From the NCBI RefSeq assembly GCF_055900595.2, contig NZ_CM148325.1: DNA of 64,000 nt. One strand, given 5' to 3'. Under the pieces are notes generated by a model, which saw nothing but the letters and a program-made list of their open reading frames with translations, had not been told where the DNA came from and ran no database searches. Position numbers and translations under genes: made by a program. Shown in pieces: positions 46,548 to 55,146 of this stretch. The first letter of the stretch is position 1. Each line of letters opens with the position of its first letter.

Positions 46548-47396
46548 ATGGCGACATACCTTATTGGCGACGTTCATGGTTGTTACGATGAACTGATCGC
46601 ATTGCTGCATAAAGTAGAATTTACCCCTGGGAAAGATACCCTCTGGCTGACAGGCGATCTGGTTGCGCGCGGACCGGGTTCGCTGGATGTTCTGCGCTAT
46701 GTGAAATCCTTAGGCGACAGCGTACGTCTGGTGCTGGGCAATCACGATCTGCATCTGCTGGCGGTATTCGCCGGGATCAGCCGCAATAAACCGAAAGATC
46801 GCCTGACACCGCTGCTGGAAGCGCCGGATGCCGACGAGCTGCTTAACTGGCTGCGTCGCCAGCCTTTGCTGCAAATCGACGAAGAGAAAAAGCTGGTAAT
46901 GGCCCACGCAGGGATCACGCCGCAGTGGGATCTGCAGACCGCCAAAGAGTGCGCACGCGATGTAGAAGCGGTGCTGTCGAGTGACTCCTATCCCTTCTTT
47001 CTCGACGCTATGTACGGCGATATGCCAAATAACTGGTCACCGGAATTGCGGGGGTTGGGAAGACTGCGTTTTATCACCAACGCCTTTACCCGTATGCGTT
47101 TTTGCTTCCCGAACGGTCAACTGGATATGTACAGCAAAGAATCGCCGGAAGAAGCCCCTGCCCCACTGAAACCGTGGTTTGCGATTCCTGGCCCTGTCGC
47201 TGAAGAGTACAGCATCGCCTTTGGTCACTGGGCATCGCTGGAGGGCAAAGGTACGCCGGAAGGTATTTACGCGCTGGATACTGGCTGCTGTTGGGGCGGG
47301 ACATTAACCTGCCTGCGCTGGGAAGATAAACAGTATTTTGTCCAGCCGTCGAACCGGCATAAGGATTTGGGTGAGGGAGAGGCGGTCGCGTCTTAA
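46548..47396 (+). CDS. apaH: ApaH, diadenosine tetraphosphatase (symmetrical)
   Basis: 282 aa [46 protein letters not shown]... (metallophosphatase motifs), ending ...[10 protein letters not shown]. Stop overlaps the ccdB stop on the opposite strand. Confidence 0.95.
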
Positions 47397-47707
47397 ATCC
47401 CGTCGAGCATAAAATCTAATGCTCCTTTAATCAAAGTTCGGTGCGCGCTGGCATCGCAAAATTTCGTTCCCAGCGTGTTAACTGGAACAGTTGCAGTCTC
47501 ATGCGTCATGAGCACATATTCTTTGCCGTCTACCAGTAAAAGGATTGGGTTAAGCCGTTCTGGTGGGCGAATATGGCTAAATCGTTCAATAGGTGTTAAT
47601 GGATTAACGATACGGCGATTAATCTCACCAATAATGTCGCTGGTAACATCGATAACAAAGGGCAACGCGGCGTTCCTGCCGCGACTGCGGTATACCGTAA
47701 ATTGCAT
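47393..47707 (-). CDS. ccdB: CcdB-family toxin (gyrase poison), chromosomal homologue
   Basis: 104 aa [44 protein letters not shown]...ATVPVNTLG...DFMLDGI. Shares the MQF-VY N-terminus, FVDV-SDII block, VPV and terminal GI with F-plasmid CcdB as I recall it. Sits 2 nt downstream of a CcdA-like ORF in antitoxin-toxin order. Confidence 0.85.
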
Positions 47708-47709
47708 CG

Positions 47710-47943
47710 CTAGAAGTTCCGGTACTCATCAGAGAAACATCCGGTTTCATCAGCCAATTGATTTAACGCAGCGATAGCTTCTGCATTCTCTTCACGCCAA
47801 CGTGTTGCTGCATGTTTTTTAAGTTCAGCATTGAGCGCAACCGTAAGGGTGGCGCTCATATTTAAGCCTGCATCACGAGCGCGATTGACTAACTCACGGT
47901 CGACGGTGACGGTCACACTTTGTGTGGTACGTTTTGCAGTCAT
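47710..47943 (-). CDS. ccdA: CcdA-family antitoxin, chromosomal homologue
   Basis: 77 aa ORF MTAKRTTQSVTVTVDRELVNRARDAGLNMSATL...RWREENAEAIAALNQLADETGCFSDEYRNF. Resembles F-plasmid CcdA (TVTVD N-terminal ribbon region; RW-EN ... F-DE-R-F C-terminus). Good Shine-Dalgarno (CAGGAGCACGATATCATG). Confidence 0.85.
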   Translation of the reverse strand: MTAKRTTQSVTVTVDRELVNRARDAGLNMSATLTVALNAELKKHAATRWREENAEAIAALNQLADETGCFSDEYRNF

Positions 47944-48028
47944 GATATCGTGCTCCTGTACAATTTATACGTCTTGTATACACGGATATCTGCACGTATC
48001 AGTGATGCCGGAATTCTGATATACAAAC
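47944..48028 (-). promoter_or_regulatory. Putative ccdAB promoter/operator
   Basis: The 85-bp folA-ccdA spacer contains clustered GTATAC-like elements (TGTACA, TTATACG, TGTATACA, CGTATCA, GATATACA), resembling the short palindromic operator repeats of plasmid ccd operons. Confidence 0.5.
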
Positions 48029-50554
<2,526 letters not shown>

Positions 50555-54204: not shown

Positions 54205-55146
54205 TCAACGCGCTAAAGCGGCGGTCAGCGCCGGAAGGATCTTCACGGCGTCACCAACAATGCCGTAATCCGCGAACTGGAAGATCGGCGCATTTTTATC
54301 TTTGTTGATGGCGAAAATAGTTTGCGACGCGTTAGCGCCAACCATGTGCTGGATCTGCCCGGAGATCCCCACCGCCAGGTACAATTCAGGTTTCAGCATC
54401 AGGTTGGAGATACCGACATAGCGTTCGTGCTCCATCCATTTTTCGTTTTCTGCCACCGGACGAGAACAGGCCAGCTCCGCACCTATCGCCTTGCAAAGCT
54501 GTTCTGCCAGCGCAATGTTCTCTTTGCTGCCAATGCCGCGGCCGACGCTGACCACCAGACGGGCTTTATCCAGATCGACGCTGTTGCTCTGGCGCGCCTG
54601 CGTTGCCGTGCGGGTAATCGCCACCGCCGGAGCCTGCCACGCCACGGTGTGTGTTTCGCCAGTACGTGACGCGTCTGGCTGAGCCGCATCAAACGTGCCG
54701 CTGCTGATGGTCAGTACCGCATACGGCGTGGCAATGCGTTCTTCGCCAATCGCCAGACCGCCGTAAACCATGTGTTTCACTGTCGCTTTACCGTCCTGCA
54801 CGCTAACTGCGCTGGCATCGTTCGAAACCGCCGCTTTAAGGCGATAACCCAGTTTTGCCGCCAGTAATTTGCCGCGACGGCTATTCGGCAACAGCACCAG
54901 ACCGTCTGCGCCGTGCTGGCGAATAGTGTCAGCCATGACACCGGCGTAATCTTCGATCATCCGATCGTCCGGTTTGCCGCTTAATGTCCAGACATGATTA
55001 GCACCAAGCTGGATTGCCAGTGCGCCGTCGGCATCATTGAGGACAAAGGTGTTGATTTGATTAGCTAAAGCCTGCGCACCGTTCATCAGTTCCGGCAGAC
55101 GAGAAGGGGTATCGCTGAATACCCAGACTTGAGAAAACGTGTTCAT
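54205..55146 (-). CDS. fixB: FixB, electron transfer flavoprotein alpha-subunit homologue
   Basis: 313 aa [40 protein letters not shown]... Confidence 0.94.

Follow-up and report, generated by a model that had tools for sequence, protein, structure and literature searches.

Promoters and a probable operator of conserved CGTGT units in the spacer upstream of the chromosomal ccdAB genes of Escherichia coli

Described ccd operators and the locus between folA and apaH

Autoregulation of a toxin-antitoxin operon by its own antitoxin is textbook knowledge, and an operator in front of the chromosomal ccdA gene is therefore to be expected. The closest described system is the ccdAB operon of the F plasmid (Tam & Kline 1989; Dao-Thi 2002; Madl 2006; Vandervelde 2017), in which CcdA dimers bind weakly at sites spaced by about one turn of the helix; bridged by dimers of CcdB, they form a chain that represses and that an excess of CcdB breaks (PMC5389731, PMC3920265). 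The F operator spans 113 bp and contains eight sites (PMC5389731). As in F, the locus described here combines a homologous CcdA of the ribbon-helix-helix type with CcdB; the sites are 12 and 11 bp apart in F and 12 and 10 bp apart here, and in both cases they overlap the -10 and +1 region. The promoter hexamers are also alike, being CTGATT-17-TATACT in F (our own reading of the sequence) and CTGATA-16-TATACT in O157, and by analogy repression would be expected to proceed as in F, with CcdB dimers linking CcdA dimers into chains. The two systems differ in the recognition unit, which is a GTATAC palindrome in F and would be CGTGT(A), in direct and inverted orientation, at the chromosomal locus, and in the number of sites, as three recognisable copies lie within about 28 bp here.

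Two further comparisons are instructive. The omega repressor of pSM19035 is a symmetric ribbon-helix-helix dimer that reads non-palindromic NATCACN heptads in direct or inverted orientation (PMC3920265). The units here are arranged analogously, but their spacing is 10-12 bp, whereas the omega heptads adjoin one another with a period of 7 bp; nor is omega an antitoxin, and it is related to CcdA by fold only. In the operators of Arc, Mnt, CopG and RelB, two ribbon-helix-helix dimers occupy adjacent half-sites over the promoter, and the arm centres of the dyad described below, about 10 bp apart over a -10 box, would suit two dimers on one face of the DNA. The sequences differ, however, the match between CcdA and CopG is weak (E = 0.8), and cooperativity in ccd systems is expected from the toxin bridge and not from dimer-dimer contacts.

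The window, i.e. the whole stretch of 64,000 nucleotides that was analysed, is E. coli chromosome, and its ccdAB genes lie in the interval between folA and apaH, which is the known ccdO157 site. The gene calls and the limits of the spacer proposed in a first-pass annotation of the sequence were borne out by the open reading frames and by Pfam matches to CcdA, CcdB and DHFR:

46548-47396, plus strand: apaH
47393-47707, minus strand: ccdB, toxin and presumed co-repressor (Pfam PF01845, E = 7e-30)
47710-47943, minus strand: ccdA, antitoxin (Pfam PF07362, E = 1e-26)
47944-48028, minus strand: folA-ccdA intergenic spacer, 85 bp, 40% GC (open reading frames, Pfam and sequence)
47953-47957, minus strand: Shine-Dalgarno sequence AGGAG of ccdA, 9 nt before the ATG; the GGAG block is kept in relatives
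48007-48028, minus strand: ancestral folA 3' flank, present also in E. coli without ccdAB (alignment with the ccd-less YSP8-1); contains GAATTC and the fifth GTATAC-like element discussed below
48029-48508, minus strand: folA, dihydrofolate reductase (Pfam DHFR)
minus strand, as ccdB, ccdA and folA: kefC

On the sense (minus) strand the spacer reads TAA-GTTTGTATATCAGAATTCCGGCATCACTGATACGTGCAGATATCCGTGTATACAAGACGTATAAATTGTACAGGAGCACGATATC-ATG, and the CcdB of the window is 94% identical to that of EDL933 over its full length. Among 5426 complete E. coli genomes, about 2020 have ccdAB at the folA/apaH site and the remainder have the folA flank only. The ccd-less genomes match the folA flank of the window from about 48020 onwards; in the alignment with YSP8-1 the common sequence, TAA(T/G)TTTGTATA..GAATT..CGGC, extends to about 48007, so that only about 63 bp before the ATG of ccdA arrived with ccd. 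At the opposite end of the operon, the stop codons of ccdB and apaH overlap in TTAA (47393-47396), the two genes being convergent with no terminator between them, and a strong EDL933 start (55347, plus strand), 7 nt before the ccdB stop, runs antisense into apaH. The C terminus of ApaH (window 47370-47396, compared with L002 600-632) is …GEGEAVAS in ccd-positive and …GEAAAS in ccd-less strains, which places the boundary of the ccd insertion or deletion inside the 3' end of apaH.

Transcription starts and promoters in the spacer

Cappable-seq of E. coli O157:H7 EDL933 has mapped two starts of the antitoxin gene, 54740 and 54778, both in eight of eight conditions, the latter with a relative read score of 127-320 (PMC10469882). 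We checked these coordinates in NZ_CP008957.1, where a folA start at 54238 reproduces the 24- and 35-nt folA leaders of that paper and ccdA starts at 54803. Position 54778 is the A of ACGT-A-TAAATT, 7 nt downstream of TATACT, and 54740 is the A of CCGGC-A-TCAC. For the promoter of the former, P2, a promoter scanner run on the O157 allele and the bTSSfinder output of the paper agree on the boxes CTGATA-16-TATACT. The starts were mapped in EDL933, and the features of P1 and P2 were carried to the window by alignment with O157:

47968, minus strand: homologue of the main ccdA start (EDL933 54778), 25 nt before the ATG
47975-47980, minus strand: -10 box of P2, TATACA in the window, TATACT in O157:H7 and most E. 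coli; overlapped by GTATAC at 47976-81
47997-48002, minus strand: -35 box of P2, CTGATA (scanner and bTSSfinder, via alignment)
48006, minus strand: homologue of the upstream ccdA start (EDL933 54740), 63 nt before the ATG, at the junction of ccd-borne DNA and the old folA flank
48013-48018, minus strand: likely -10 box of P1, judged by its spacing to 54740; CAGAAT in the window, TAGAAT in O157

The software used in the paper places the -10 box of P1 at TATATT instead, equivalent to 48018-48023 of the window (PMC10469882). A consensus promoter and terminator scanner called no promoter in the window's spacer; it was silent also on F, where the promoter is known, and on the ccdA strand of four relatives, and its silence on the window's spacer results from its rule, which demands a final T in the -10 box.

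Starts on the opposite strand are present as well. One, found in eight of eight conditions (EDL933 54788, minus strand there), corresponds to 47958 on the plus strand of the window, 10 bp away from the start of P2 and pointing towards it. The sequence TGATATCGT, which includes the GATATC at 47944-49 and overlaps the start codon of ccdA, resembles an extended -10 box for this antisense start, and strains of the B2 group have GAGATC there, which would destroy that box. A second antisense start, from stationary phase, corresponds to 47971.

One alternative explanation involves no operator, namely that the TATA-containing words of the spacer are the -10 boxes of the overlapping P1, P2 and antisense promoters and that ccdAB is not autoregulated from the spacer. 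Three to four mapped starts lie in or beside the spacer, the GTATAC-like words at 47976-83 and 48018-26 coincide with the -10 box of P2 and with the TATATT box called for P1, respectively, and by our own reading GATATC in TGATATCGT serves the antisense start. P2 is also strongly active in EDL933 despite the intact ccdAB genes of these cells, which indicates that any repression is partial. We nevertheless regard this explanation as unlikely, on account of the conserved sequence described in the following section.

The promoter boxes vary within the species. Exact-seed searches with 40-nt queries in the 5426 complete genomes found the O157 core CGTGTATACTAGACG in 1466 genomes, CGTGTTTACTAGACG in 399 and the CGTGTATACAAGACG of the window in 8. 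In the second allele GTATAC is broken to GTTTAC and the -10 box reads TTTACT (A-11 -> T), and in the third T-7 of the -10 box is replaced by A; the CGTGT arm is retained in all three. Strain PCN033 has the GTTTAC allele alongside intact ccdA and ccdB genes. The window departs from nearly all other E. coli in both presumed -10 boxes, with TATACA for TATACT (47975) and CAGAAT for TAGAAT (48018). Since the importance of A-11 and T-7 in sigma-70 promoters is established, both minority alleles should weaken P2. With the conserved final T of its -10 box lost, P2 may be weak in the strain of the window, and ccdO157 is possibly undergoing decay at the level of the promoter. Wilbaux et al. have, according to a paper that cites them, tied promoter differences to expression differences.

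Transcripts may also enter ccdA from folA. A terminator scan of the folA-ccdA interval found no terminator-like site, which makes read-through plausible. RNA folding of the junction gave a hairpin across the folA stop (48009-48050, minus strand; overall z-score -1.5), which has no U-run and was not counted as a terminator. This hairpin, GAUUCUGG…UCAGAAUU, is kept in ccd-positive and ccd-less strains alike (L002, about 690-730), and the REP hairpin of the ccd-less strains is absent from the window.

GTATAC-like words and conserved CGTGT units

The first-pass annotation had counted at least five GTATAC-like elements in the spacer and had likened them to the short palindromes bound by CcdA-CcdB. 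The five stretches exist on the plus strand, as GTACAA (47958-63), ATACGT (47967-72), GTATACAC (47976-83), ACGTATC (47994-48000) and GATATACAA (48018-26), but their quality is uneven. The only perfect GTATAC of the spacer is at 47976-81; TTATAC (47965-70) and ATATAC (48019-24), 11 and 43 bp from it, have one mismatch, and the other two stretches require two. Three matches with at most one mismatch per 85 bp is the maximum for the window, tied with four other places (124 of 63,916 windows of the scan), and the perfect hexamer occurs three times in the 64 kb. Another of these three perfect copies lies in the first codons of ccdB (47690-47695; sense ACG GTA TAC CGC). The enrichment looked strong in comparison with the whole window but was weak against 2000 dinucleotide-preserving shuffles of the spacer itself, and we did not rely on it. 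Against these shuffles, GTATAC with at most one mismatch was observed three times compared with 1.25 expected (P = 0.10), with at most two mismatches nine times compared with 6.2 (P = 0.08), and the 5-mer GTATA/TATAC four times compared with 0.93 (P = 0.01). The TATA-containing words are thus a real but modest cluster and not five good palindromes.

An operator of the F type, in which CcdA-CcdB would bind about five GTATAC-like hexamers across the whole 85 bp, has some features in its favour. The layout parallels that of F (L005), where ATATAC overlaps TATACT, a plausible -10 box by our own reading, and a perfect GTATAC follows about 11 bp downstream; the palindrome recognised in F lies downstream of the -10 box according to a review (PMC3920265), and in the window GTATAC overlaps the -10 box, with GTATAA 11 bp downstream at the start site. 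As F CcdA discriminates poorly among palindromes (PMC5389731), loose matches might suffice, and the 5-mer is mildly enriched. The balance of the evidence, however, makes such an operator unlikely. Several near-perfect GTATAC palindromes 11-12 bp apart are not found, and the hexamer is conserved neither in relatives, where 1 of 16 non-redundant upstream regions contains it, nor within E. coli, where the 399 genomes with GTTTAC include PCN033 with its intact operon. With one or two mismatches allowed, the enrichment over the shuffles falls short of significance, the fifth element is in DNA shared with ccd-less strains and the first in an unconserved stretch. In place of about 113 bp with about eight sites, about 63 bp are ccd-borne, with a block of 28 bp and three units. 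Finally, the CcdA of the window is 31% identical to that of F, and a serine replaces R4 on the strand that faces the DNA. One IncF plasmid that encodes the same CcdA as F (L001 540-600, compared with L005 350-407) has GCATAC in place of the perfect GTATAC nucleation palindrome and is without the upstream GTATAA, so that even F-type operators vary at these sites.

What does recur upstream of ccdA is a different sequence. A genome scan with a CcdA alignment provided 39 loci, from Dickeya, Pectobacterium, Erwinia, Pantoea, Klebsiella, Serratia, Yersinia, Photorhabdus, Xenorhabdus, Morganella and others, with CcdA proteins 58-68% identical to that of the window; an initial protein search had yielded only relatives at least 66% identical, and the informative loci came from the alignment-based scan. 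The far-upstream DNA of these relatives is 25% identical without gaps, a chance-level value that makes their loci independent contexts, compared with 63% for the operator-like block. In an unbiased 6-mer count from -80 to -1 in the 16 non-redundant regions, CGTGTA/TACACG ranked first (12 of 16, against 0 of 16 controls), and the single GTATAC was that of the window itself; GTATAC as the repeated motif is not supported. In 29 of 32 ccdA relatives from other Enterobacterales a 15-bp dyad, CGTGT-N5-ACACG, begins 35-43 nt before the ATG, and a CGTGYA copy begins 12 nt upstream of the dyad. Conservation in the arms is 92-100% (mean 1.78 bits), against 0.54 bits for the central N5 and 0.61 bits for the surroundings. 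The corresponding features of the window are:

47970-47984, minus strand: dyad CGTGTATACAAGACG, candidate CcdA operator core; 9 of 10 arm positions match the consensus; -16 to -2 of P2
47991-47996, minus strand: third repeat CGTGCA in direct orientation, beginning 12 nt upstream of the left arm; -28 to -23 of P2
47970-47997, minus strand: whole operator-like block (repeat and dyad), 28 nt; -29 to -2 of P2

The right arm is imperfect in E. coli (AGACG), and the columns -11 (G), -10 (T) and -7 (A) of the third repeat are 92-100% conserved across the relatives. A weight matrix built from 13 non-E. coli relatives gave 47970-47997 a score of 22.4 bits, with a runner-up of 11.1 among about 128,000 positions, and in leave-one-out scans the top match fell 48-56 nt before ccdA in 13 of 13 loci; on F the same matrix reached 1.1 bits, i.e. 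nothing. With at most one mismatch the dyad pattern has two matches per 64 kb, as chance predicts, and the chance of such a match within this 85 bp is about 0.003. The centres of the repeat units are 12 and 10 bp apart, i.e. about one helical turn, which puts the three units on one face of the DNA. An insertion scar was rejected as the origin of the dyad because of its fixed distance to ccdA in unrelated contexts.

The five stretches can be reinterpreted on this map. The element at 47976-83 comprises the left arm and the -10 box of P2, 47967-72 the end of the right arm and the transcription start, and 47994-48000 the -35 box and the beginning of the third repeat copy; 47958-63 belongs to the unconserved leader (5' UTR) and coincides with the plus-strand antisense start at 47958, and 48018-26 lies inside the folA-flank DNA common to ccd-less strains. 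Our best reading is that GTATAC would be present mainly as a -10 box inside the dyad and not as a recognition sequence. The expectation of an autoregulation-type repeat before ccdA has indirect support, as a promoter region and a conserved repeat and dyad are where they should be, directly upstream of ccdA and overlapping its promoter, while the motif that had been named is not supported.

Promoter boxes alone do not account for this pattern. The centre of the dyad has the -10-like form TAnnnT in the loci of E. coli, Yersinia, Photorhabdus and Xenorhabdus; those of Erwinia, Pantoea, Klebsiella, Dickeya and Serratia are without it and have a conserved TGTTATGMT, an extended -10, immediately before the first repeat. 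Arm conservation does not differ between the two groups, which makes promoter constraint alone an inadequate explanation. The view that the spacer holds promoters and no operator thus leaves unexplained the near-invariant CGTGT/ACACG arms around a variable centre, their conservation where this centre has no -10 features, and a concerted change of all three copies in one lineage, described below. A host transcription factor might be thought to bind the dyad in place of CcdA; nothing points to it directly, dyads of this size being typical of many regulators. It is highly improbable, as the element travels with ccdAB into unrelated contexts in at least 10 genera, changes along with the beta-strand of CcdA, and has, at up to one mismatch, a single further match in the 64-kb window, as expected by chance. 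A host-factor site was rejected on the same grounds as the scar, i.e. the fixed distance to ccdA in unrelated contexts.

The protein offers a second line of evidence. Residues 8-76 of the window's CcdA align to residues 3-71 of F CcdA, the structure of which is solved (2ADL, 2H3C), with E = 8e-6 and 31% identity, and this alignment together with the Pfam match places a ribbon-helix-helix domain at the N terminus. The beta-strand QSVTVTVD aligns to QRITVTVD of F, and the DNA-facing strand is the same except that S9 stands where F has R4. In Photorhabdus cinerea and Morganella morganii (L023 and L033, about 1441-1470) all three repeats read TGTTTA or its complement (TGTTTA/TAACA), and their CcdA beta-strand is MQTVTMT as against TQSVTMT, with T where the others have S. 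This change is a candidate natural specificity switch, the co-variation of protein and DNA resting here on one lineage with two loci. In a distant CcdA subfamily (36-40% identity; L035, L038, L039, L041 and L042, from marine gammaproteobacteria and a Lautropia metagenome-assembled genome), a TTTACA -35 box and a CATAAT -10 box within the 120 nt upstream of ccdA enclose two or three ATGCGCAT-type palindromes with a spacing of 12 bp. The element therefore appears to be inherited with the module (29 of 32 loci, in unrelated contexts) and to co-vary with the antitoxin, the latter in few lineages. A shared architecture whose words differ and shift with the protein is the pattern that an antitoxin operator should display.

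Proposed mechanism and its implications

Taken together, these comparisons make it probable that the spacer, besides the ccdAB promoters P1 and P2, carries a self-repression operator of conserved CGTGT units, bound by CcdA with CcdB in an F-like manner but with another recognition sequence. The first-pass annotation had therefore named the right kind of element, an ordinary sort of control region, and was wrong in the detail. The gene identities, the starts mapped in O157:H7 and the position and conservation of the repeats are shown, whereas we infer the protein that would bind the repeats and its effect, as follows. Transcription of ccdA begins at two starts, the main one from P2 and an upstream one from P1, the -10 box of which probably lies in the old folA flank. 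The region from the -35 box to +1 of P2 holds three CGTGT(A) units, a direct copy (47991-96) and an inverted pair (47970-84), and ribbon-helix-helix dimers of CcdA would occupy them. Dimers of CcdB would bridge neighbouring CcdA dimers and raise their avidity, as in the F plasmid, and the resulting complex over the -10 box would shut P2. For transcripts that come from P1 or from folA read-through the complex would be positioned downstream, 32-59 nt beyond the folA stop, and might act as a roadblock; an influence on transcription out of folA had also been suggested in the first-pass annotation.

By comparison with F, we infer an operator that is shorter and more sequence-specific but follows the same logic. 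The sequence specificity of F CcdA is low, and by that analogy the conservation of a motif need not equal a recognition code. We offer a wider proposal as a tentative one. The O157-type chromosomal CcdA proteins may use a three-CGTGT operator code that tracks beta-strand position 9 (S with CGTGT, T with CTGTT, N with TGTGT, and the R of F with GTATAC), and coexisting plasmid and chromosomal ccd systems may be transcriptionally independent; the knock-down alleles of the P2 -10 box (A-11 -> T in about 400 genomes, T-7 -> A in 8 including the window) may represent promoter-level decay, or else a handover to the folA-flank promoter and read-through.

The GTATAC rule of the F plasmid is not transferable to the chromosomal ccd family, which has a well-conserved 28-bp block of its own that footprinting and mutagenesis can address precisely. 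What looks like a palindrome is the -10 box of a strong, mapped promoter, and mutating it would confound promoter and operator effects. About 20% of the ccd-positive E. coli genomes, and the window, are altered at two critical -10 positions, which is relevant to the reported evolutionary decay of ccdO157 and to work connecting drug tolerance with chromosomal ccdAB.
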